Positions 4,744 through 30,832 of a stretch of DNA of 60,884 nt are shown here, in pieces; positions within the stretch are counted from its first letter, which is position 1, and each line of letters opens with the position of its first letter. Where the stretch lies: NCBI GenBank assembly GCA_021847925.1, contig JAJZNI010000164.1, positions 1 to 60,884 on the forward strand, given 5' to 3'. The position numbers and the translations under genes are program-made. This DNA is from a bacterium (GTDB taxonomy: Bacteria; Chloroflexota; Dormibacteria; Aeolococcales; Aeolococcaceae). The notes below the pieces were generated by a model, which worked only from the letters and a program-made list of their open reading frames with translations, made no database searches and was not told the origin of the DNA.

Positions 4744-5724
4744 GTGCGCCACAAGATCACGATCATCGGCGCCGGCAACGTTGGTGCCACCCTGGCCCAG
4801 CGCTTGGCCGAGCGCGACTACGCCGACATCGTCCTGGTGGACATCGTGGAGGGCCTCCCCCAGGGCAAGGCCCTCGACCTCCTCGAGGCCGGACCGGTCG
4901 TCGGCTACGACAGCCTCATCACGGGCAGCAACGGCTACGCGGAGAGCGCCGGCAGCGACGTGGTGGTGGTGACCAGCGGCATCGCCCGCAAGCCGGGAAT
5001 GTCCCGCGACGACCTGGTCATGACCAACGCCGGCATCGTCGCCGGGGTGGTCCGCCAGGCGTCCGCCGCATCCCCCGACGCCGTGATCGTGGTGGTGAGC
5101 AACCCCCTCGACGTCATGGCGCAGGTGGCGCTGGCCGTCAGCGGATTCCCCCGCGAGCGCGTCGTGGGCATGGCCGGGGTGCTCGACACGGCCCGTTTCC
5201 GGGCCTTCCTCGCCCTGGAGCTGGGGGCCTCGGTGCGCGACGTCCAGGCCTACGTCCTGGGCGGCCACGGCGACACCATGGTGCCCCTCACCCACCTCAG
5301 CACCGTGGCCGGCGTCCCGGTGGCCGACCTCATCCCCGCCGAGCGCCTCGAGCAGATCGTGCAGCGCACCCGCGACGGCGGTGCGGAGATCGTCAGCCTG
5401 CTGAAGACGGGGAGCGCCTACTACGCGCCCAGCGCCGCGGTGGCCCAGATGGTCGACGCGATCCTCCTGGACACCCGCCAGGTCCTGCCCTGCAGCGTCC
5501 ACCTCCGCGGCGAGTACGGCATCTCCGGGGTCTTCAGCGGCGTCCCCGCGCGGCTCGGCGCCGGCGGCCTCCTGGAGGTGATCGAGGTGGCGCTGAGCGA
5601 GCCGGATCAGCGCGCCCTGGGCCGTTCCGCGGATGCCGTCCGCGAGGTCGTCGAGCTGATCGAGCGCAGCCGCACCCAGATCCAGGCCGACCTGCCCCCG
5701 CTGCTCGCCCCTCCGCCGGCCTGA
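4744..5724 (+). CDS. mdh: Malate dehydrogenase (LDH-like MDH family)
   Basis: [15 protein letters not shown] Rossmann motif, [13 protein letters not shown] substrate loop, and [11 protein letters not shown] with the catalytic His. GTG at 4744 follows ggagga (4733-4738). Confidence 0.9.
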
Positions 5725-5928
5725 CCGGCCCCGCCGCCCCTCTGCGGCGGGTCGGCGTCGAGCAGGTCGCGCGGCATGGCCGGCCCCGGGTGGACGCTGC
5801 GAAGACCGGGCGGCGCGGCGGGCGCCCGGCTGGCACCGCCGCTGCCACCTCCCTGCATGGCCCTCCCATGGTCGTGGGCCGCGGCCACCGCTCCGACCCC
5901 GGCCGCCCGGGTCCCCCGGCTTCATGGA

Positions 5929-6204
5929 TCATGCGCCCGCATCCGGACCCACCCCCTCGTCCTCGCTCGACAGGCGCACGCCGGCCGGGTCCGGGTCCCG
6001 GCCCGGGCTGGTGGCCACGGGCAGCTCGCGGTGCGGCTCGCGATAGCGCATCCCGAAGAGGGGCCCGAGGACCACCAGCAACCGCACCATGGCGATCCGC
6101 AGCTCGGAGTCCCCCCACTCCGGCGTCCTGGAGTGGACGTAGAAGGCGGCGACCGCCACCACCAGCACCCCCAGGATGCCGGCCATGATGATCACCGTGA
6201 CCAT
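5929..6204 (-). CDS. Small hypothetical membrane protein (about 2 TM helices) immediately downstream of sdhB
   Basis: 91-aa ORF. High GC3. Hydrophobic segments VIIMAGILGVLVVAVAAFYV and IAMVRLLVVLGPLF. Same strand as the sdh operon, 30 nt after it. Confidence 0.45.
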   Translation of the reverse strand: MVTVIIMAGILGVLVVAVAAFYVHSRTPEWGDSELRIAMVRLLVVLGPLFGMRYREPHRELPVATSPGRDPDPAGVRLSSEDEGVGPDAGA

Positions 6205-6234
6205 GGGCTCACCGCGTGGCGGGGCCGCCTGCCC

Positions 6235-7083
6235 TCAGGCGGCGCCGGCACCTCCTCCGCCCTCGCCGCCATCACCCGGGCCCCCCAGGGCACCGGCCGG
6301 GGCGGCCTCGCCGCCTCGGGTCCCGGGCCCGCCGCGCAGCCGCCGCGCCAGCCTGCGGAGCGGGTCCCAGTGCTCGTCCGCCACCCTCTCCTTGAGCGGG
6401 ATGATGGCGTTGTCGGTGATGTGGATGTGCTCGGGGCAGACCTCGGTGCAGCACTTGGTGATGTTGCAGAGGCCGAGCCCCCCCTCCTCGCGCACCAGTT
6501 CGCGGCGGTCAAGGATGTCCTTGGGGTGCATCTCGAGCCCGGCCACCCTGACGAAGAACCGGGGACCGAAGAACTGCGGTGCCAGGGCGTGACTGCGGTT
6601 GACGTGGCACACGTCCTGGCACAGGAAGCACTCGATGCAGCGCCGGAATTCGTAGAGACGGTCGATGTCCATCTGATCGATCCGCCAGGGCGAGCCGTCG
6701 TCGGGCGCCGCAGTGAACTGCGGGATCTGCCGGTTGATCTCGTAGTTCCGGGAGACGTCGGTGACCAGGTCCTTGATCAGGGGGAAGGAGCGCATCGGCT
6801 GGACGGTGATCGGTCCGTCGGAGAGCGTGTCCACCCGCGTCTTGCACATCAGCGCGGGCCGTCCGTTGACCTCGGCGCCGCACGAGCCGCACTTGGCGGC
6901 CTTGCAGTTCCACCGGCAGGCGAGGTCCGTGTCCAGGTTGCGCTGCACGAAGTGGACCGCATCCAGCACCACCATGCCCACCACCTCGGGGACCGCATAG
7001 GTGGCGTAGCTCTGCTCACCCTCCGGCAGGCCGCGGAAGATGCGCAGGGTGAGGGTCCGGCCGGTCAGCTGCCCGTCCGTCAT
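6235..7083 (-). CDS. sdhB: Succinate dehydrogenase/fumarate reductase iron-sulfur subunit
   Basis: 2Fe-2S motif CRWNCKAAKCGSCG...C and ferredoxin-type clusters CIECFLCQDVC and CNITKCCTEVCP. ATGA start/stop overlap with sdhA. Gly/Ala-rich C-terminal extension. Confidence 0.9.
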   Translation of the reverse strand: MTDGQLTGRTLTLRIFRGLPEGEQSYATYAVPEVVGMVVLDAVHFVQRNLDTDLACRWNCKAAKCGSCGAEVNGRPALMCKTRVDTLSDGPITVQPMRSFPLIKDLVTDVSRNYEINRQIPQFTAAPDDGSPWRIDQMDIDRLYEFRRCIECFLCQDVCHVNRSHALAPQFFGPRFFVRVAGLEMHPKDILDRRELVREEGGLGLCNITKCCTEVCPEHIHITDNAIIPLKERVADEHWDPLRRLARRLRGGPGTRGGEAAPAGALGGPGDGGEGGGGAGAA

Positions 7084-21302: not shown

Positions 21303-23081
21303 GTGACCACACCGGAGACGGCGCCAACCCTGAAGCCGGGTGACGTGTTCGCCGGGCGGTATCGGATCAGATCCCGCCTCGGCGAGGGCCACCGGAAGGT
21401 CGTCTATCTCGCCCACGACGGCCGAATGTACCGCGATGTGTCCCTCGCCCTGCTCAAGCGGCACGCCTGGGAGCAGGATCCGACCGCGGCCGAGCAGGAG
21501 ATGCGAGTTCTCGGCGCGGTCGGCCGCCACGACAACATCGTCACCCCCTACGACACCGGGACGGTCGGAACCCAACACTACATGGTGTTCGAGTATCTCC
21601 CCGGTGGCACGCTGCTCGATCACCTCGTGCAGCTGCGTTCCCGAGGGCAGATGCTCCGTGGGGAGGACATACTCCGCCTCGGACGCCAGCTCTGCCGTGC
21701 CCTCTCGCACCTTCACGGGCGGGGAATCATCCACCGGGACCTGTGCCCGAAGAACGTCTGGCTCGACGAACGCCTCGCCGCCCACATCGGCGATTTCGAC
21801 ACCGCGATACTCGCTGCGGACGTCCCCCCTCGCCTCCGTCCGTTGACAAACGGCAGCTATGCGGCTCCCGAAGAGAGCACCGGAGGCCCGATCGATGAGC
21901 GTTCCGATCTGTTCTCGCTCGGAGGCGTCCTCTTCACAGCCGCCGCCGGCCCGGACACGACTCCGCGTCAGCCGGAAGCCCTGTGCGCCACACGCCCGGA
22001 TCTGCCACGCTCCTTCGCTCGTCTCCTCTCCCGACTTCTTTCCAACGATCCCGACGATCGGCCCTCGGACGCCGAGAGCGTGCTCAACTCCCTCCTCGAG
22101 ATCCGGGCGGACCTCGCCAAACATCGCCCGGATCAGGCGTCCAGCAGTATCGACTTCCCCACCCCTGATCCCGCCGAGCTCAGGCTCGCCGCTCAGGTGC
22201 AGCCGACCCGCTACTCGCCCGGCGACGTCATCGGGGGCCGCTTTGATGTGCTTGACCTCCTGGGGCAGGGCGGGTATTCACGCGTCTACCGTGTCCGGGA
22301 CACCGTGGAAGGCGAGGAACGAGCGCTCAAGCTGTTCGACAATGCGGCCGGCTATGAGGCTGTCCGACGCGAGCTCGGCGCTCTGAGGAAGATCCGCCAC
22401 CCGCGCGTCGTCGAAGTGTTCTGGGCCGACAAGACCGACGCCGGCGAATGGTACCTGGTCACCGAGTTCATCGATGGCGAGCCTCTCACCAAGTATGCGG
22501 AGGGCCAAGCTCGCCTTCCAGACCGTGAGGCGGTGGGTCTGTTATTGGATGTGCTCGATGCCGTGGTGGCGATACATCCGGACATCCAACGCATCGAGAC
22601 GCTGAAGGAGAAGGGAACGCGATCAGATCTGTCCGCTGACGAATTCTCCGAGCTCCAGCGCCTTCAGGACGCGGGACTTGTTCATCGTGACCTCAAACCC
22701 AGTAACATCATGCTCACCAGGAAGGGCGCACGGTTGCTGGACTTCAACATAGCATCGCGGGTCGGCGAGACTGTGAGGACCCAGTCCGGTACGCCCGCGT
22801 ATCAGGCGCCGGATTCCCTTCTCACTCGCTGGGATGTATCAACTGACCTGTTCGCGATCGGTGTCGTCCTGTGGAAGCTGCTGTGTGACGGCCAACACCC
22901 CTATCCCGGTGCCAAGCCGATGGTTGACGCGATCCCTCTCGACCCCCAGCAGCTCCGCCCCGACCTCCCTCCTCGCCTGGCCCATTTCCTCACCAAGGCC
23001 TGCGCTCCCGACCGGAGAGATCGATTCCAAAGTGCGGCCGCAATGCGAGACGAGCTCCTGGAGATCCGCGCACTTCTGTAG
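21303..23081 (+). CDS. Soluble protein with two tandem Ser/Thr protein kinase domains (tandem kinase)
   Basis: Domain 1: LGEGHRKVVY, ALLK, IIHRDLCPKNVWL, GDFDTA, YAAPE, DLFSLGGVLF. Domain 2: LGQGGYSRVYRV, ALKLF, LVHRDLKPSNIML, LLDFNIA, AYQAPD, DLFAIGVVLW. No TM or other recognisable domain. GTG start after ggagag. Confidence 0.8.
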   Translation: MTTPETAPTLKPGDVFAGRYRIRSRLGEGHRKVVYLAHDGRMYRDVSLALLKRHAWEQDPTAAEQEMRVLGAVGRHDNIVTPYDTGTVGTQHYMVFEYLPGGTLLDHLVQLRSRGQMLRGEDILRLGRQLCRALSHLHGRGIIHRDLCPKNVWLDERLAAHIGDFDTAILAADVPPRLRPLTNGSYAAPEESTGGPIDERSDLFSLGGVLFTAAAGPDTTPRQPEALCATRPDLPRSFARLLSRLLSNDPDDRPSDAESVLNSLLEIRADLAKHRPDQASSSIDFPTPDPAELRLAAQVQPTRYSPGDVIGGRFDVLDLLGQGGYSRVYRVRDTVEGEERALKLFDNAAGYEAVRRELGALRKIRHPRVVEVFWADKTDAGEWYLVTEFIDGEPLTKYAEGQARLPDREAVGLLLDVLDAVVAIHPDIQRIETLKEKGTRSDLSADEFSELQRLQDAGLVHRDLKPSNIMLTRKGARLLDFNIASRVGETVRTQSGTPAYQAPDSLLTRWDVSTDLFAIGVVLWKLLCDGQHPYPGAKPMVDAIPLDPQQLRPDLPPRLAHFLTKACAPDRRDRFQSAAAMRDELLEIRALL

Positions 23082-24137: not shown

Positions 24138-24338
24138 TCAGGCGGCGCGGACCTGCGCCGCGCGCGGTCCCTTGACGCTGCGCTCGACCTCGAAGGCCAC
24201 GCGGTCACCCGCGGCGAGCTGGTCGAAGTTGAGCGAGCTGTCCAGTCCGCTGCGATGGAAGAAGTACTCCTCTCCATCGTCGGCCGCGATGAATCCGAAG
24301 CCGCGCTCGTTCACGACCTTCTTGACGATACCGTTCAC
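24138..24338 (-). CDS. Cold-shock protein (CspA family)
   Basis: 66 aa: VNGIVKKVVNERGFGFIAADDGEEYFFHRSGL...GDRVAFEVERSVKGPRAAQV. RNP1/RNP2-like motifs GFGFI and YFFH. GTG at 24338 is preceded by aaggaggg. The rest of ORF 24138..24863 is spurious. Confidence 0.9.
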   Translation of the reverse strand: MNGIVKKVVNERGFGFIAADDGEEYFFHRSGLDSSLNFDQLAAGDRVAFEVERSVKGPRAAQVRAA

Positions 24339-24481
24339 CGGGACGCCCTCCTTGCCTTCTCCAACGTGCAACCGAACGCTGCGCGTCCGTTCGAGAAGGA
24401 GAAGAGACCACGAGCGACCACTCACAGGAGGTGGGTGACCGAAGCGTACCATGCCGTGCCCGGGCGGGCGCCGCCGCGCGC

Positions 24482-25000
24482 CTACTCGCCGAAGGGCGTG
24501 CCCGCTCGCTCCGCCGAGACCACCTCGCCGATCGGCCGGCGGTTCTTCCTGCCCAGACCCACCCGGCCCGCCGGGTACCCGAAGGGCACCACCGCCAGCA
24601 CCTCGTACCTCGGGTCGAGGCCGACGTGCTCGCGCACCTCCTCCAGGCCGCCGAAGCCCGTCCAGTTGGACCCCACCCCCTCGGCCCAGGCGGTGAGGAT
24701 CATCGTCTGGATGGCGCGGCTCACGTCGGAGACACCGTAGGGACTGGACCGCTCGTAGGCGGCGACGATCGCGAACGCGGCCTGGGCCGTGTACGGCCCG
24801 GTGCTGACCAGCCGGCCCAGCGCACGCAGGCCCTCGCGGTCCCGGACCACCACGAAGTGCCACGGCTGCAGGTTGAGCGAGCTGGCCGACAGACGGCCGG
24901 CCTCCACGATCCGCGTGATCACCTCATCCGGCACCGGACGGTCCTGATAGGCGCGGATCGCGAGCACCGTCCGCACCGCTTCGAACACCTGGTTGGCCAT
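24482..25000 (-). CDS. Nitroreductase family protein
   Basis: MANQVFEAVRTVLAIRAYQDRPVPDEVITRIVEAGRLSASSLNLQPWHFVVV... is the typical nitroreductase fold signature. ATG at 25000 follows gaggag. Confidence 0.85.
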   Translation of the reverse strand: MANQVFEAVRTVLAIRAYQDRPVPDEVITRIVEAGRLSASSLNLQPWHFVVVRDREGLRALGRLVSTGPYTAQAAFAIVAAYERSSPYGVSDVSRAIQTMILTAWAEGVGSNWTGFGGLEEVREHVGLDPRYEVLAVVPFGYPAGRVGLGRKNRRPIGEVVSAERAGTPFGE

Positions 25001-25279
25001 GGCTCCTCGCCTCCGATGGATGCACTCGCCGCGCGACCGGTCCCGGATGAGCTCACCCCGGGGGAGCGGCCGGATCACCCGGTGCTGGCCGGCCCGCTCC
25101 ACGCGGTGCCGCCTCTGTGCTCCTCCCGGTACCGGGCGCTCCGCTCCCGCCGCGGCCTCCGACCCAGAGCATCGCACACCGCTCCGCCCTCCATGAGCGT
25201 CCGCTGCGCCTCCGAGCCCGGGCCCGCATGCGCGGTCCGGGCCCCTGGCGGCCGGCCACCCTCCCTACAATCCCGACCC

Positions 25280-27727
25280 GTGCCCGACGCGGCGCTCCTC
25301 TCGCTCGTCGCCGCCCGCTGGGAGGCGCACCCGGCCACCGGGACGTCGGCCCCCCTGGTCCTCGCGGCGTTCCGCGGCCGCGAGGCGGTCCTGGGGGTCC
25401 TCGAGGGAGAGGACGGCGGCGGTGCCACCACCGAGCCCGCGGCGTCCCGGGCGCCCGATCCCGTGCACCTCGCCGCCATCACCGTCGAGGGGTTCCGCGG
25501 CATCGGCGAGCGCGCCACCCTCCGCCTCCACCCGGCCCCGGGCCTCACCCTGGTCGTGGGGCGCAACGGGTCCGGCAAGTCCTCCTTCTCCGAGGCGCTC
25601 GAGATCCTCCTCCTCGGGACCAACCGGCGCTGGGACAGGCGCTCCCCGGTGTGGCGCGACGGCTGGAGGAACCTCCACCATCGCCACACCGTCATCGAGG
25701 CCCGCTTCGCCGCCGACGGACGCCGGGAGCCGCTCGTCGTGAGCCGCCGCTGGGACGACGGCGCCGGCCTCCAGGAGTCGACGCTCTCGGTGGGCGGGCG
25801 GCAGCGCTCCCTGGAGAGCATCGGTTGGGCGCAGCCCCTCGCCTCGTACCCGCCGCTGCTCTCCCACCACGAGCTGGAGAGCGCGCTGGACGACACGCCG
25901 TCGCACCTGTACGACGCCCTCGCCGGGATCCTCGGCCTGGGCGACCTGAGGGCGGCCCAGGAGACCCTTCGCGGGGTCCGCCTCGACCTGGAGCGCGCCG
26001 TGAGAGCGGCCGGCGACCCCGTCGACGCGCTGGTCCGCCGTCTCGAGGACTCCGCCGACGAGCGGGCCGCGACGGTGCTCGCGGCCCTGCGCAGCAGGCC
26101 CTGGGACCTCGATGCCATCGGCGAGACGCTGAGCGGGGAGGCCGCCGCGGACGAGGGGAGCACGCTGCGCCGGCTCTCCGACCTGGCCGCGCTCCCCGTG
26201 CTGGCACGCGAGGAGCTGGAGGCGACCGTCCGCGGCCTGCGCGACGCGGACCGCCTGGTGACCGAGCTCCAGCGCGGCGAGGGCGCGCGCGCCGACGAGC
26301 TGGCGGACCTCCTGGAGAGGGCGCTCGAGGTCCACGCCCACGCCGCCGGTCAGACCGCCTGCCCGGTGTGCGGGACCGAGGGCGTGCTGACGTACGCGTG
26401 GCGCCGGCACACGGGAGAGCGGCTTCGGTCGCTGCGGGAGGATGCCGAGGCGCTGCGCGCGGCCCGTGCGAGACGGGAGGCGGCGATCGCCGGCGCGACC
26501 CTGCTGGTCACGGCGGTCCCCGCGCCGCTCACGGAGTCGGGGGACCCCGGGGTGCCCGTGGAACCGGCGCTGCAGGCCTGGCGGCGCTGGAGCGCGATCC
26601 CGGAGGGTGGAGATGCCCAGCGGCTCGCCGCCCACCTCCAGGAGCGGGGACAGCAGCTCATCGCCGCCGTCGCCGAGCTGCGCCGCAGCGCGAGGGAGGA
26701 GCTGGATCGGCGCCAGCGCACCTGGCGACCGATCGCCGACACCCTCGTCACGTGGCTGCCGGCCGCGCGCGACGCCCGGGCCGCCGCGGAGCGGGTCCCC
26801 GCCGTTCGCGCCGCCGAGACGTGGCTGCGCGACGCCCACGACGAGCTGCGCGACGAGCGCTTCCGCCCCATCGCCGAGGCGGTCCAGGCCAACTGGAGCG
26901 CCCTGCGCCAGGACAGCAACGTGAGCCTGGGCGTGCTGCGCCTCGCCGGGGCGAGCACGCGGCGGCAGCTCGTCCTCGACGGGAGCGTGGACGGGGAGGC
27001 GGCGCCGCTCCTCGGGGTGATGAGCCAGGGCGAGTTGAACTGCCTCGCCCTCTCGCTCTTCCTCCCCCGCGCGTCCCAGCCCGAGTCCCCATTTCGCTTC
27101 GTGGTCATCGACGACCCCGTGCAGGCCATGGATCCCTCCAAGGTCGAGGGGCTGGCGACGGCGCTGGCGGCCGCGGCGCGGGACCGCCAGGTGGTGGTCC
27201 TCACCCACGACACGCGCCTGCCCGAGGCGGTCCGGTTCCTCCGCCTCCCCGCCACGGTGATCGAGGTTGCGCGCCGCGAGGGATCGATCGTCGAGCTGCG
27301 CGAGCTGGACAGCCCGGTGCGCCGTCACATCGACGACGCCCTGGCGGTGGCCCGGAGCGACGGGCTCCCCCCGGAGGCCCGCCGGGTGGTGGCGGGCTTC
27401 TGCCGCATGGCCCTGGAGGCGGCGGCCACCCGGGCGGTGGCGCAGAGGATGCGCCGGGAGGGCAGGCGCTTCGCGGACGTGGAGGCTGAGCTGGAGCGTC
27501 CCACCACGCTCCTCATGCTCCTCGCCCTGGCGCTCTTCGGCGACGCGTCGCGCTCCGCCGACGTCGTCCCCCGGCTGGCGCGCGACGAGCCGGGCGCGGC
27601 CGAGACGCTGCGCATCTGCAACCGGGGCGCGCACGGCGGGGCGATCCCCGGCGATCCCGCCGCCTTCGTGAGGGTGGTCGAATCCCTGACCCGGCTGCTC
27701 GCACCGCCGGAGCCGGCCGGTGGCTGA
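25280..27727 (+). CDS. Rad50/SbcC/RloC-like ABC ATPase with coiled-coil insertion, CxxC zinc hook and a C-terminal HEPN/DUF4145-like domain
   Basis: C-terminal 815 aa of ORF 24431..27727. Walker A GRNGSGKSS, signature MSQGELNCLALSLF, Walker B FVVIDDPVQAMD, H-loop VLTHDTRL. About 350 aa of helical, Arg/Glu/Ala/Leu-rich sequence lie between the head halves, with CPVCG at aa 361-364 (nt 26360-26374). C-terminal motif LRICNRGAHG (R778...H785, nt 27611-27634). GTG at 25280 lies 8 nt after TACAAT (alternative ATG at 25193). Confidence 0.8.
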   Translation: MPDAALLSLVAARWEAHPATGTSAPLVLAAFRGREAVLGVLEGEDGGGATTEPAASRAPDPVHLAAITVEGFRGIGERATLRLHPAPGLTLVVGRNGSGKSSFSEALEILLLGTNRRWDRRSPVWRDGWRNLHHRHTVIEARFAADGRREPLVVSRRWDDGAGLQESTLSVGGRQRSLESIGWAQPLASYPPLLSHHELESALDDTPSHLYDALAGILGLGDLRAAQETLRGVRLDLERAVRAAGDPVDALVRRLEDSADERAATVLAALRSRPWDLDAIGETLSGEAAADEGSTLRRLSDLAALPVLAREELEATVRGLRDADRLVTELQRGEGARADELADLLERALEVHAHAAGQTACPVCGTEGVLTYAWRRHTGERLRSLREDAEALRAARARREAAIAGATLLVTAVPAPLTESGDPGVPVEPALQAWRRWSAIPEGGDAQRLAAHLQERGQQLIAAVAELRRSAREELDRRQRTWRPIADTLVTWLPAARDARAAAERVPAVRAAETWLRDAHDELRDERFRPIAEAVQANWSALRQDSNVSLGVLRLAGASTRRQLVLDGSVDGEAAPLLGVMSQGELNCLALSLFLPRASQPESPFRFVVIDDPVQAMDPSKVEGLATALAAAARDRQVVVLTHDTRLPEAVRFLRLPATVIEVARREGSIVELRELDSPVRRHIDDALAVARSDGLPPEARRVVAGFCRMALEAAATRAVAQRMRREGRRFADVEAELERPTTLLMLLALALFGDASRSADVVPRLARDEPGAAETLRICNRGAHGGAIPGDPAAFVRVVESLTRLLAPPEPAGG

Positions 27728-28148
27728 GGAGAGCGACCCCCACGCCCTGGTCGCCGCCGCCCGCGATGTGGCCCGCATCGAGACGGAGGCCACCGCCGGG
27801 CTGTGGCCCAGGGCGGCCGCCCTCCTCACCCGCCAGGCCCTGGAGGCCGCGATGGCACGCCTCTGGGCGGCCACGGCCCCGGGGCTGGAGCGCACCTCCG
27901 GTCGCTGCCAGGTCCTCTGCGTGGGCACCCTCCTCGGCGACCCGGACCTCGGCGGCCGCGTCACTCTCGCCTGGAACGTCCTCTCGGAGGCCTGCCACCA
28001 CCGCGTGTACCGGCTGCCCCCCACCGCCTCCGAGCTGGAGCGGGCTTTCGAGGCGGCGTGGGACCTCGCCGAGGCGACGGAGGCCCTGGCCTGCGAGGCC
28101 GCGGAGAGGCGCGGGCGGCTCCCCCCCCGCGCTGAGGGTCTCCCGTGA
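27720..28148 (+). CDS. Small helical protein, apparent paralogue of the upstream ATPase C-terminal domain (motif Arg replaced by Asn)
   Basis: 142-aa ORF with very high GC3. Its GTG overlaps the ATPase stop (GTGGCTGA). By-eye alignment: TRQALEAAMARLW vs CRMALEAAATRAV, GTLLGD vs LALFGD, WNVLSEACHH vs LRICNRGAHG. Confidence 0.6.
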   Translation: MAEESDPHALVAAARDVARIETEATAGLWPRAAALLTRQALEAAMARLWAATAPGLERTSGRCQVLCVGTLLGDPDLGGRVTLAWNVLSEACHHRVYRLPPTASELERAFEAAWDLAEATEALACEAAERRGRLPPRAEGLP

Positions 28149-28206
28149 CCCGCGGCAGCCCCTCCCCCGCCGCCGTCCCCTCCCTGTGCGACGTTTCAAC
28201 CAGTAC

Positions 28207-28235
28207 TTGACAGCTTCAACAACCACTGGTAATGT
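28207..28235 (+). promoter_or_regulatory. Sigma-70-type promoter candidate for the YheO-like regulator operon
   Basis: TTGACA (28207-28212), 17-nt spacer, TAATGT (28230-28235), in a locally AT-rich stretch 55 nt upstream of the GTG at 28290. The TTCAAC direct repeats (28195-28200, 28215-28220) flank the -35 box. Confidence 0.5.
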
Positions 28236-28289
28236 CCCGCGCCACCACAAGTCCCGCGGACGAGGACGCAGCGCATCCGAGGCACCGAG

Positions 28290-29171
28290 GTGGCACAGCA
28301 GAGATCCCCTGCCCTCGCCGGCGAGCGAGACCACGCGCGGCTCGCCCGGAGCACCGCGCGGGAATCGACGGCCGCTCGGGAAGCGGTGGTGGCCACGCTC
28401 CGATCCCTGGTGGAGCCTCTCGCCACGGCGCTGGGACCCGGCAACGAGGTCGTCGTCCACGATCTCGCATTGCTCCCCAACTCGATCGTTGCGATAAGCG
28501 GTGGCGTCACCGGACGGTCCATCGGGGGGCCGGCCACCGATCTCCTGCTCCAGGAGACGCGGCGGGGGCGGGGCGAGGACCTGCTCCGCTACAGGAGCAG
28601 CACGCGGGCCGGCGTCCCCCTGCTCTCGTCGACCATCTTCGTCAGGGACGCGAACGGAGTCCCGATCGCGTCCCTGTGCATCAACACGGACCAGTCCGCC
28701 TGGCTGCAGATGCAGCCCCTGGTCCTGCCCGCCACCGGGGCCCCCGCCCGGGCGCCGGCCCCGACGCCCGGCTCCGAGCACGCCGCCGGGCCGGCCCAGG
28801 AGACGTTCCCGGCCTCGGTCGAGAGCCTCACCGCCAGCATGGTCGACCAGGCGATCCTGAGCATCGGCGTCCGGGTCGAGCTGATGCAGCGTGCCCACAA
28901 GCTGGAGGTGGTGAGGAAGCTCGAGGCGGGGGGTGTGTTCCTCATCAGGGACGCGGTGGACTACGTGGCCGGCGCTCTCCAGGTCACGCGCTACACGATC
29001 TACAACTACCTGAGCGAGATCCGCGAGCAGTCATCGGGAGTGCGCGCCAACGGCAGGAGGGCCACCATGAAGCGACTTCCGTTGGGGCCGGCCGCCGCCC
29101 CGGAGACGGACGGCGCGGCGCCGGGATCCGCCGCGTGCCGCCGGCCCTCGAAGGCGCGGGGGGTTGCGTAG
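28290..29171 (+). CDS. YheO/DauR-like transcriptional regulator (PAS_6-type sensor + C-terminal HTH)
   Basis: NEVVVHDLALLPNSIVAISGGVTGRSIGGPATDLLL is the YheO-like PAS signature. The C-terminal part KLEVVRKLEAGGVFLIRDAVDYVAGALQVTRYTIYNYLSE is HTH-like. Confidence 0.8.
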   Translation: MAQQRSPALAGERDHARLARSTARESTAAREAVVATLRSLVEPLATALGPGNEVVVHDLALLPNSIVAISGGVTGRSIGGPATDLLLQETRRGRGEDLLRYRSSTRAGVPLLSSTIFVRDANGVPIASLCINTDQSAWLQMQPLVLPATGAPARAPAPTPGSEHAAGPAQETFPASVESLTASMVDQAILSIGVRVELMQRAHKLEVVRKLEAGGVFLIRDAVDYVAGALQVTRYTIYNYLSEIREQSSGVRANGRRATMKRLPLGPAAAPETDGAAPGSAACRRPSKARGVA

Positions 29172-29174
29172 GCC

Positions 29175-29570
29175 ATGGCCACCCCCGCACCGATCGGACA
29201 CTACTCGCCCCTGGTCGTCACACCTCCTGACGTGCGCATGGTCTTCCTGTCGGGTCAGTTGCCGATCGACCCCGCCACCGGGGCCATCGCCGACGCCGAT
29301 GTCCCCACCCAGGCCCGCCAGGCGCTCGCCAACGCCCTCGGGGTGCTGGCCACGGTCGGGGGGACCACGGCCGACGTCATCAAGGTCACGCTCTACCTGA
29401 CCGATCTTGCCGAGTACGCACGGCTCAACGAGGTCTACGCCGAGTTCATGGGGGCGGCGCGCCCAGCCCGGACCGTCGTGGAGGTGTCGCAGCTGCCGCG
29501 CGGGGCCAAGGTGGAGGTGGATCTCACGGCCGCCGTCGCGAGCGACCGCCTCCCTGTGGCCCCGTCGTGA
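29175..29570 (+). CDS. ridA: RidA/YjgF/TdcF family reactive-intermediate deaminase
   Basis: APIGHYSPLVV...VFLSGQLPIDPATG...DVIKVTLYLTDLAEYARLNEVYAEF...PARTVVEVSQLPRGAKVEVD. Confidence 0.9.
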   Translation: MATPAPIGHYSPLVVTPPDVRMVFLSGQLPIDPATGAIADADVPTQARQALANALGVLATVGGTTADVIKVTLYLTDLAEYARLNEVYAEFMGAARPARTVVEVSQLPRGAKVEVDLTAAVASDRLPVAPS

Positions 29571-30832
29571 CGGATGCCTCAGCGATGGCAGAGCTCACCG
29601 GATTCGCGTGCATCCGGTGTGGCCGCGCATACCCGGCAACCCGCGACCACTGGGGATGTCCGGCGTGCGCCGGCGAGGTCGCAGCGAATCTCGCCGTGAC
29701 GTACGCGGCACCGCCGCAGCCCGGAGCGGATTCGCCGAGCGCGAGCCACGACGGCATCTGGCGGTACGCCGACTCGCTTCCCCTCGCCTCGAGCAACGCG
29801 GTGTCGCTGGGAGAGGGGCGGACCCCCCTGCTGAGCTGTGAGCGCCTCGGCGCGACCCTCGGCCTGCCCCGGCTGATGCTGAAGATGGAGTCGCAGAACC
29901 CCACCGGCTCGTTCAAGGATCGGATGGCGTCGGTGGGCGTCTCCTGGGCGATGGTGGCGGGACGCCCCGGCATCGCGGTCTCGTCGTCGGGGAACGCCGG
30001 GATCTCCGCGGCGGCCTACTCGGCGCGTGCCGGGATCCCCTGCGTCGTCTTCGCCACGGCCAGCACGCCGCGGATCATCCTCCGAACCATCGGGGCCCTC
30101 GGCGCCATGGTGGTCACGACCACCACCCTGGAGGAGCGCTGGCTGCTGAACCGGGAGGTTGCCGAGGCGTGGGGATGGCTGCCGCTCTCGAACGCGGCCG
30201 ACCCTCCCGTCGGGAGTCACCCCATCGCCGTCGAGGGCCACAAGACACTCGCCTACGAGATCGCCGAGGCATTGGAATGGACGGCTCCCGATGCGGTGAT
30301 CGCCCCCGTGGCCTACGGCGACGCGCTCTGGGGCATGCTCCGCGGCTTCCAGGAGATGAGGGATGGCGGGGTGCTGAGGGCGGTCCCGAGGCTGATCGCC
30401 GCGGAGGCGTATCCCACCCTCTCCACGGCCCTCGCGTCGGATTCCGAAGCACCGCTGCGGGTTGCGGGCAGCGGATCGCGGGCCCGCTCGATCGCCACCA
30501 ACATCGGCACGTACCAGGCGCTGGAGGCCATCCGGCGCTCGGGGGGCACGGCGGTCCACGTGCCCGAGGACGAGGCGATCAAGGCCCAGGCGGCGCTGGG
30601 CAGGGACCCCGGCACCCTGGTGGAGCTGAGCTCGGCGATGCCGCTGGCGGCGGCCGCAGCCCTGGCCCGTGCCGGCGTCCTGCAGCCGGATCAGCTCGTC
30701 GTGGTGGTGGCGACGGCGACCGGGGCCAGGGAGGTCGAGGAGAGCTTCTCGGGGTCGGAGCCACCGCCCGCCGGGGGGTCCCTGGAGTCGTTGGCCGCGG
30801 TGCTCGCGAGGGAATATGGGTTCCGCGTGTAG
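29567..30832 (+). CDS. PLP-dependent threonine synthase-like enzyme with N-terminal zinc ribbon
   Basis: CIRCGRAYPATRDHWGCPAC ribbon. PLP-lysine motif ESQNPTGSFKDRMA. GTGA overlap with ridA. The specific activity (ThrC or another beta-family PLP enzyme) is not determinable by eye. Confidence 0.75.
   Translation: MTDASAMAELTGFACIRCGRAYPATRDHWGCPACAGEVAANLAVTYAAPPQPGADSPSASHDGIWRYADSLPLASSNAVSLGEGRTPLLSCERLGATLGLPRLMLKMESQNPTGSFKDRMASVGVSWAMVAGRPGIAVSSSGNAGISAAAYSARAGIPCVVFATASTPRIILRTIGALGAMVVTTTTLEERWLLNREVAEAWGWLPLSNAADPPVGSHPIAVEGHKTLAYEIAEALEWTAPDAVIAPVAYGDALWGMLRGFQEMRDGGVLRAVPRLIAAEAYPTLSTALASDSEAPLRVAGSGSRARSIATNIGTYQALEAIRRSGGTAVHVPEDEAIKAQAALGRDPGTLVELSSAMPLAAAAALARAGVLQPDQLVVVVATATGAREVEESFSGSEPPPAGGSLESLAAVLAREYGFRV

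Follow-up and report, generated by a model that had tools for sequence, protein, structure and literature searches.

Contig JAJZNI010000164.1 from a Dormibacteria genome (assembly GCA_021847925.1) is a public contig, analysed over its entire length as a window of 60,884 nt, i.e. the whole stretch of DNA studied. It carries on the forward strand a gene for an ABC ATPase and, directly behind it, a small gene for a 142-aa protein, and the relationship between these two genes and their products is the subject of this work (Table 1). The GTG start of the small gene sits within GTGGCTGA and the ATPase gene is overlapped by 8 nt; in both respects the coordinates agree with the original prediction, which had been made from the sequence of the window. 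The spacing between a GGAG sequence and this GTG is 7 nt. The G+C content at third codon positions (GC3) is 0.94 in the frame of the small open reading frame (ORF), compared to 0.80 and 0.61 in the other two frames, which bears out the strong coding signal noted earlier, and the ATPase gene upstream has a GC3 of 0.95. Several long ORFs overlap the small gene, e.g. that at 27513-28898 on the reverse strand, and these were rejected as high-GC artefacts because it is the forward frame that shows the coding signal and is conserved. The junction falls between -8 and +7 nt in at least 33 of the genome loci for which ORF calls are clean, and the tight coupling is thus conserved and not special to this contig. 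A scan of 24900-28450 for promoters and terminators found none.

Table 1 Features of the two-gene locus and of its surroundings, with positions in the window
Feature	Position	Strand	Basis or remarks
Small gene, 142-aa protein, predicted five-helix and HEPN-like	27720..28148	+	GC3, family conservation, AF2 model, HEPN structural matches, co-occurrence with ATPase
Coupling junction	27709..27727	+	GGAG 27709-27712; GTG of small gene 27720-27722; TGA of ATPase gene 27725-27727
Small protein R38-x3-E42 (RQALE), in helix 28-52, R31 ahead	27831..27845	+	R38 117/117, E42 117/117, R31 115/117
Small protein motif W85-N-V-L88-S-E-A-C92-H93-H-R-V-Y97	27972..28010	+	W85 116/117; L88, H93, Y97 117/117
Tail R709-x3-E713 (RMALE), in long helix, R702 ahead	27404..27418	+	R709 117/117, E713 116/117, R702 110/117
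Tail motif R778-I-C-N781-R-G783-A-H785	27611..27634	+	H785 117/117, G783 116/117, N781 105/117
ABC/Rad50-like ATPase gene, 815 aa	25280..27727	+	Pfam SMC_N, AAA_21, AAA_23; head, long helical insert with zinc hook, C-terminal helical domain
Walker A / P-loop GRNGSGKSS, aa 94-102	25559..25585	+	Invariant in 57 full-length homologues
CPVCG, aa 361-365, CxxC zinc-hook-like motif	26360..26374	+	Invariant in 57-sequence alignment
ABC signature MSQGELN	27020-27040	+	Conserved in homologue alignment
Walker B/D-loop FVVIDDP	27098-27118	+	Conserved in homologue alignment
H-loop LTHD	27200-27211	+	Conserved in homologue alignment
ATPase tail, aa 676-815, C-terminal helical domain, putative HEPN-like paralogue of small protein	27305..27724	+	AF2 model, hhalign
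Nitroreductase gene	up to 25177	-	Pfam
YheO-like PAS and helix-turn-helix regulator	28290-29171		Pfam; directly downstream in the window
RidA-like protein	29175-29570		By eye
Pyridoxal phosphate-dependent threonine-synthase-like protein	29567-30832		By eye

The small ORF is a true gene, and the family to which it belongs is large and unannotated. When 5.8 billion proteins were searched, 247 homologues were found at E ≤ 1e-3; most are about 129 aa long and 60-76 % identical, and they come from several phyla, with Dormibacterota, Solirubrobacteraceae and Dehalococcoidia among the sources. Where they have a name at all, it is 'hypothetical protein'. The protein from the window itself (P0393) occurs in NCBI, Logan and ENA. 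A profile search returned 1011 clusters at E ≤ 1e-3 (representatives at 50 % identity). The small protein from the window has no match in Pfam, NCBIfam or PADLOC, and 83 diverse members of the family matched no Pfam family, the HEPN families included. Profile searches of the PDB by sequence with three alignments (A1-A3) gave chance matches only, and none to a solved HEPN protein. Both strands of this DNA carry many long spurious ORFs, and the small ORF might be one more such frame in high-GC DNA. However, its GC3 is high in frame only, hundreds of homologues of the same length and with invariant residues occur in at least five phyla, and the position beside the ATPase gene is conserved. The homologue family and the conserved pairing refute such a chance origin, to which we assign next to no probability.

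The small gene is the near-obligate, tightly coupled downstream partner of the ATPase gene, and this was found in both search directions. When 79 loci from species-representative genomes were collected with the small protein as seed, an ATPase homologue lay directly upstream on the same strand in 77 of them; one of the two exceptions has only 498 nt of upstream sequence and the other a gap of 2.3 kb. The reverse set was seeded with the C-terminal domain of the ATPase, hereafter the tail, and consisted of 80 metagenome loci, 78 of which had enough downstream sequence. The small gene followed the ATPase gene directly in 76 of these 78, and the co-occurrence check that had been proposed with the original prediction thus came out in favour of a near-obligate pair. 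No further gene was conserved across the loci besides the ATPase and small genes. The divergence of the tails and that of the small proteins are correlated (r = 0.93), and the small protein is slightly more conserved, with a mean pairwise identity of 54 % compared to 49 % for the tail.

The two metagenome loci in which the small gene is absent downstream (L108:949-4216 and L144:1039-5054) contain ATPase homologues with intact R...E...H tails. By eye, the first is followed by an ORF resembling an ORF6N/antirepressor-type protein and the second by small ORFs, one of them PIN-like in appearance. All 79 genome loci found are contigs of metagenome-assembled genomes (MAGs), and the family is known almost solely from uncultured bacteria. 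Four MAGs (locus pairs L042/L044, L043/L050, L052/L059 and L072/L074) carry two divergent copies of the pair on different contigs, with different identity to the window, and these could be true paralogous systems or bin contamination. In one protein (P0371) the small-protein domain is fused to an unrelated N-terminal segment of about 100 aa, and in another (P0315) the ATPase tail reads through into the small gene via frameshifts; both may be assembly artefacts. The only named match to the tail from a cultured isolate is WP_332427095.1 of Streptomyces sp. P9-A2 (P0225, 229 aa), annotated as 'hypothetical protein'. Its N-terminus is non-homologous and it looks like a cut-down ATPase remnant; a 715-aa relative (P0404) is found in the same cluster.

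The upstream protein belongs to the SMC/Rad50 type of ABC ATPases and carries an invariant CPVCG motif. Its length of 815 aa holds if GTG 25280 is the start, which agrees with the N-termini of the homologues and with the residue numbering used earlier. The nearest sequences in the PDB are the heads of SMC and Rad50 proteins. CPVCG, which resembles a zinc hook, is placed centrally in the helical insert that separates the two ATPase half-sites, midway from Walker A to the signature motif. The H-loop is followed by the tail, a helical domain of 140 aa, which has no family match in Pfam, NCBIfam or PADLOC. When 36 tails were compared with Pfam, no HEPN family was matched, and weak matches of tail fragments to DUF7931 were dismissed, being below threshold and located at the end of the ATPase lobe.

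The AlphaFold2 (AF2) model of the small protein has five helices and a predicted local distance difference test score (pLDDT) of 90.5. HEPN proteins make up 13 of the top 50 Foldseek matches to this model in the PDB and have the best template modelling (TM) scores, i.e. 0.61/0.68 for AF_0298 (2hsb), 0.62 for HepT (7ae8) and 0.57-0.67 for Parep1 (2q00); 1wwp and 1wol were also matched. The identity to the HEPN entries in the structural alignments was 9-17 %. The model suggests that the small protein is probably HEPN-like, at the level of the fold only, and to that level the earlier reading of it as a HEPN-type protein holds. The tail was modelled from a 200-aa query with a pLDDT of 91 and helices at 64-76, 83-111, 116-123, 129-138, 141-154, 158-170 and 178-192 of the query. 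Its HEPN matches were weak (1wwp, 6m6u and 8xeh, TM 0.2-0.37), probably because the 200 aa modelled consist partly of the ATPase lobe, and of these matches 1wwp was common to the small protein. Foldseek searches against viral structures found nothing significant.

Profile comparisons point to the tail as a distant paralogue of the small protein, and we regard homology of the two as likely. BLASTP of the small protein against the tail was not significant (E = 4.2), and hhalign with a shallow small-protein profile gave P = 0.054 over 88 columns. With 83 diverse small proteins against 36 tails the P-value was 0.0009 over 114 columns (probability 23 %), and with about 200 small proteins against about 150 tails it was 0.0027 over 112 columns; together, the deeper-profile comparisons gave P-values of 0.0009-0.005 over 109-114 collinear columns. 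A third tail alignment gave P-values of 0.035-0.05. Controls with one partner reversed, and thus of the same composition, scored 8-16 compared to 16-28 for the true comparison, with P-values of 0.3-0.6 in the deeper runs. The similarity was also localised within the ATPase by cutting the 57-sequence full-length alignment into 26 segments, each compared forward and reversed. The tail segments scored highest (16.3-17.4), whereas scores elsewhere reached at most 13.6 forward and 15.6 reversed. Only the two segments covering the whole tail aligned over more than 100 columns, and segments short of the tail aligned over at most 50.

Both proteins have R-x6-R-x3-E in a long helix (R31, R38 and E42 in the small protein, R702, R709 and E713 in the tail) and an invariant His where the penultimate helix ends. 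The blocks that had been paired by eye in the original prediction (ARDVARIE/ALAVARSD, TRQALEAA/CRMALEAA and GTLLGD/ALFGD) fall into one collinear hhalign alignment, although the alignment is statistically weak. The pairing of H93 with H785 was likewise found in one hhalign alignment, but others shift by four residues and place C92 with C780. The register with the two His residues paired is favoured, because the predicted secondary structure ends both penultimate helices at the His.

Conservation of single residues was counted over 117 complete gene pairs. In the small protein W29, R38, E42, L88, H93, Y97 and E105 are invariant, H93 being at the end of helix 75-92 in the AF2 model. The C-terminal domain of RloC has the triad Arg-X3-Glu-X36-52-His, mutation of which abolishes the activity of RloC and PrrC (PMC2610378), and the spacing R38-x3-E42-x50-H93 of the small protein corresponds to this as a pattern match only. 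The Rx4-6H motif was not found in the small protein, in which H93 is invariant and the residues at positions -5 to -7 from it are L88, V87 and N86. As regards the acidic residue of the Ex3[KR] type that HEPN proteins have in an early helix, E42 is invariant within R38-x3-E42, with R47 at +5 and not at +4. In Parep1-type HEPN proteins, too, the His is kept and the motif Arg is absent, its place perhaps taken by other basic residues that are conserved (PMC3710099), and this is also the pattern of the small protein.

These counts change the view of the small protein as a catalytically altered copy in which the motif Arg is replaced by Asn (N86, compared to R778 in the tail). The substitution is true of this sequence, but it is uninformative, since N86 is variable in the family (N, H, S, R, A or Q) and position 778 of the tail is K or R in only 81/117 homologues, with [KR]778-x6-H785 likewise in 81/117. 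R778 is thus not family-defining. The R-x3-E...H residues are invariant or nearly so in both proteins, and the description as catalytically altered is not supported.

One sub-clade connects the two proteins at the level of single residues. In its four loci readable on both sides (L160, L162, L163 and L164) H785 and G783 are missing from the tail, which reads RRCEAGREVKA, RRCADSAEIPP, EPIDAGARELTA and RRCEAGGEMKA locally, and the small protein of the same four loci has G, C, L and G in place of R38. All other readable pairs (152/152) keep both R38 and H785, and there was no discordant pair. The loss is specific: among the 20 small-protein columns conserved to at least 95 %, R38 alone was changed throughout the sub-clade, and among the 13 such columns of the tail, G783 and H785 alone. 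E42, H93 and Y97 of the small protein and R709 and E713 of the tail are still intact. With the triads working in cis, each domain on its own, both domains would be dead in this sub-clade and their remaining catalytic-type residues would be expected to drift; the lack of drift argues that R38 and H785 share one site. The joint loss with the rest kept would therefore fit a heterodimer of tail and small protein with composite sites. The simplest reading which it suggests is that R38 and H785 belong to one site, while a second site, consisting of R709/E713 of the tail and H93 of the small protein, persists. The composite, dimer-type sites anticipated in the original prediction gain support from this pattern.

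Two apparent exceptions were rejected. A 'T' at position 785 in locus L156 was due to a register shift in BLAST, and the His is present. Locus L049 contains a pseudogenised pair (5640-6400), in which the ATPase gene carries a frameshift and the small gene is interrupted by an in-frame stop ('RIHAA*HGLSRSCRIQTYEL') and no longer encodes H93.

We propose, with a probability of about 0.45, that the small protein is a five-helix HEPN-like partner of a Rad50/RloC-like ATPase, that the tail of this ATPase is its paralogue, and that the two form a heterodimer with composite nuclease-type sites. The small protein would bind the tail as a pseudo-symmetric heterodimer, and two composite sites would form across the interface, site A from R709/E713 of the tail and H93 of the small protein, and site B from R38 of the small protein and H785 of the tail. 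By analogy with RloC/PrrC and other HEPN dimers, the heterodimer would act as a metal-independent RNase, possibly an anticodon nuclease, and the hook-bearing ATPase may gate it via ATP upon a DNA-related or infection signal. We thus infer a physical heterodimer with RNase chemistry and a trigger, and likewise a role in conflict or defence. More tentatively, the pair may represent a widespread two-gene system of soil bacteria, a 'split RloC' with fused and free HEPN-like paralogues in a heterodimeric nuclease of which one site is dispensable, found in the soil phyla Dormibacterota, Acidobacteriota, Actinomycetota and Chloroflexota. Each site would then take its Arg/Glu from one subunit and its His from the other, and catalysis would need the separately encoded subunit.

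Several observations weigh against this proposal. A conserved canonical Rx4-6H arginine is absent from both proteins, and the spacer between E713 and H785 of the tail is 71 residues, outside the 36-52 of RloC. The joint loss is confined to one clade and may be a single evolutionary event, and a strict two-site model would not predict that E42 of the small protein is still conserved there. The hhalign probability was 1-23 %, every Foldseek E-value for the small-protein and tail models was above 0.1, helical bundles match promiscuously in structure searches, and neither protein has a significant sequence link to a known HEPN or RloC/PrrC family. The genes beside the pair in the window have metabolic or regulatory functions and give no context support for a role in defence, and no copies or relatives were found on the plasmids and viral contigs searched.

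It is possible to explain the pair differently. The small protein could be a non-catalytic adaptor of a DNA-handling ATPase of the SMC/Rad50 type, serving in repair or in chromosome or plasmid surveillance, and its likeness to HEPN proteins and to the tail could be that of a generic helical bundle, with the conserved polar residues used for binding. The closest solved sequences are indeed SMC and Rad50 heads, the zinc hook does not vary, none of the nuclease families is matched significantly by sequence, plasmid and viral copies were not found, the neighbours in the window are metabolic, and synteny is conserved in Dormibacterota, with an SDR gene upstream in 37 loci and GroEL downstream in 22. 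We nevertheless consider this rather unlikely, because HEPN proteins are strongly enriched among the structural matches, with the best TM scores, and the invariant Arg, Glu and His follow the pattern of a proven RNase triad. The four MAGs with two divergent copies, the pseudogenised copies such as that in L049 and the patchy cross-phylum spread also fit an accessory conflict gene better than a housekeeping one. An inhibitory role was put forward in the original prediction, in which an Arg-less small protein could cap, inhibit or regulate the ATPase-linked domain in an antitoxin-like or adaptor role. As a cap, a non-catalytic mimic of the tail would block the dimerisation surface of the tail and prevent the assembly of a tail:tail nuclease site until a trigger removes the mimic. 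The pairing is obligate and translationally coupled, the fold is HEPN-like with probable paralogy to the tail, the canonical HEPN Arg position (N86) is not conserved, and HEPN toxins are commonly silenced by a partner, e.g. RnlB or MntA (PMC3710099). However, R38, E42, H93 and Y97 of the small protein are invariant and a steric cap needs none of them, and as R778 of the tail is conserved no better than N86, the contrast on which 'Arg-less' was based vanishes. A fast-evolving antitoxin would not be expected to be better conserved than the tail, typical antitoxins are not encoded second, downstream of their partner, and the specific co-loss of R38 and H785 suggests a shared function and not a blockade. 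Such a cap is in our judgement unlikely, and the sequences indicate that the small protein more probably supplies catalytic residues than acts as an inactive one.

The small protein could, alternatively, be the toxin itself, held by the ATPase tail as in the AriA-AriB pair of PARIS and, after release, cleaving RNA as a homodimer. Its complete and invariant R-x3-E...H with RloC-like spacing, its structural neighbours, which are free-standing HEPN toxins such as HepT (7ae8), and the weak matches of the ATPase head to AriA, LmuB and GajA types would fit such a sequestered effector, and there is a precedent in PARIS, where an ABC ATPase is reported to act as a sensor that releases a nuclease (PMC10802264). 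R709, E713 and H785 are, however, invariant or nearly so in the tail, and a docking domain would need none of them. The joint loss of R38 and H785 is also hard to explain in this way, as the loss of R38 would cripple a homodimer to which H785 is irrelevant. We regard release of a homodimeric toxin as very unlikely.

With the composite heterodimer as the preferred reading, the pair appears by analogy to be a variant of the ABC-HEPN (RloC-like) conflict systems, with a kinship that is architectural and not one of sequence family. RloC, an anticodon nuclease that excises the wobble nucleotide, combines an ABC head with a coiled coil that bears a CXXC hook and with a nuclease domain at its C-terminus (Davidov and Kaufmann 2008, PMC2610378); such a hook within a coiled coil helps to define both Rad50 and RloC (PMC2610378). 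The ATPase described here is similar in that a long helical insert, which carries the CXXC hook, splits its ABC head, and in that its C-terminal all-helical domain contains a conserved Arg-X3-Glu...His. Like RloC, it has a GTG start, and RloC genes are usually unlinked to restriction-modification (R-M) genes, as here. The earlier label 'RloC-type' is apt for this architecture of ABC head, CXXC hook and helical C-domain, but it does not extend to sequence membership. The Pfam family AAA_13 (PF13166) was matched with 25.7 bits, compared to a cut-off of 36, and only over the Walker B region (aa 595-666 of an 830-aa query); of 36 tail fragments, four matched AAA_13, with E ≥ 0.12, and neither RloC nor PrrC was among the top PADLOC matches of the ATPase. 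The spacing of the RloC triad fits the small protein (X50) and not the tail (X71). RloC is also a single polypeptide with no described obligate small partner, whereas about 97 % of the loci here encode, downstream, a further and free copy of the putative nuclease-type domain.

In other ABC-HEPN proteins, such as PrrC, APECO1_4465 and ERFG_01251, an ABC ATPase regulates a C-terminal RNase of the HEPN type (Anantharaman et al. 2013, PMC3710099), and these proteins are predicted or shown to be suicide or defence nucleases (PMC3710099). PrrC differs from the ATPase here in having no coiled-coil hook and in depending on a linked type I R-M system. None of PrrC and the other ABC-HEPN proteins has been described with a free HEPN paralogue as partner, and there is no match at the level of hidden Markov models (HMMs). 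HEPN-T/Parep1, AF_0298 (2hsb) and HepT (7ae8), which the small protein resembles best in structure (TM 0.57-0.68), have no detectable sequence similarity to it, and their partners are MNT nucleotidyltransferases and not an ABC ATPase. A catalytic site built from two facing HEPN domains is found in RnlA-type homodimers, and both HEPN motifs of Las1 are needed for cleavage. The proposed sites would be built in the same way, from two facing domains, but here one HEPN-like copy would be fused and the other free, encoded by separate coupled genes. To judge by the reciprocal loss of R38 and H785, one of the two pseudo-symmetric sites may be dispensable.

PARIS (AriA-AriB) and Lamassu (LmuB with LmuA/LmuC) are, like the pair as proposed here, multi-gene systems combining an ABC/SMC-like sensor ATPase with a nuclease effector. 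The PADLOC matches of the ATPase head were weak, with 57 bits for LmuB as the best and 47 bits for AriA, and covered generic head and coiled-coil regions only. Unlike in those systems, no counterpart of the Toprim protein AriB, LmuA or LmuC is conserved here, and the effector type and the fused copy differ. The pair also departs from type II toxin-antitoxin systems, in that the small gene is encoded second and the small protein is more conserved than the tail. The combination of ATPase and small protein had not been recognised as a described arrangement for RloC-type proteins, and we likewise found no description of it in Pfam, NCBIfam, PADLOC or the searchable literature, outside which there is one relevant classification paper.

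The regulator, RidA-like and threonine-synthase-like genes downstream (28290-30832) look like a separate operon with overlapping junctions. Further upstream, a 592-aa ORF at 21303-23081 apparently consists, by eye, of two Ser/Thr-kinase-like halves, and the C-terminal part (24138-24350) of a reverse-strand ORF at 24138-24863 is cold-shock-like by eye ('GFGFIAADDGEEYFFH'). In 22 Dormibacterota loci (L003:6525-7799 and 21 others) a conserved ORF of about 356-424 aa starts about 135 nt downstream of the small gene. It contains a PD-(D/E)xK-like 'GDFLITL...VAVEAKSG', has no match in Pfam or PADLOC and is absent from the window; it may be a third component specific to this lineage, or no more than a syntenic neighbour. 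Some loci of the pair, which is patchily spread over at least five phyla, adjoin PIN or nucleotidyltransferase genes.

PrrC and RloC are the textbook abortive-infection nucleases with an ABC ATPase and a HEPN domain, and to our knowledge their nuclease domains have no solved structure. By analogy with RloC, a role of the present pair as a conflict or stress nuclease is plausible. If the proposed heterodimer is correct, a pair of fused and free domains with a signature of residues acting in trans would provide a tractable handle on how such active sites are assembled and gated. More than 1000 clusters of proteins now called hypothetical, chiefly from uncultured soil phyla, would then gain an annotation, and the pair would possibly be a new RNase module gated by ATP or DNA damage. 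If the small protein is instead a non-catalytic SMC accessory, the pair would still represent a new conserved Rad50-like complex in these phyla.

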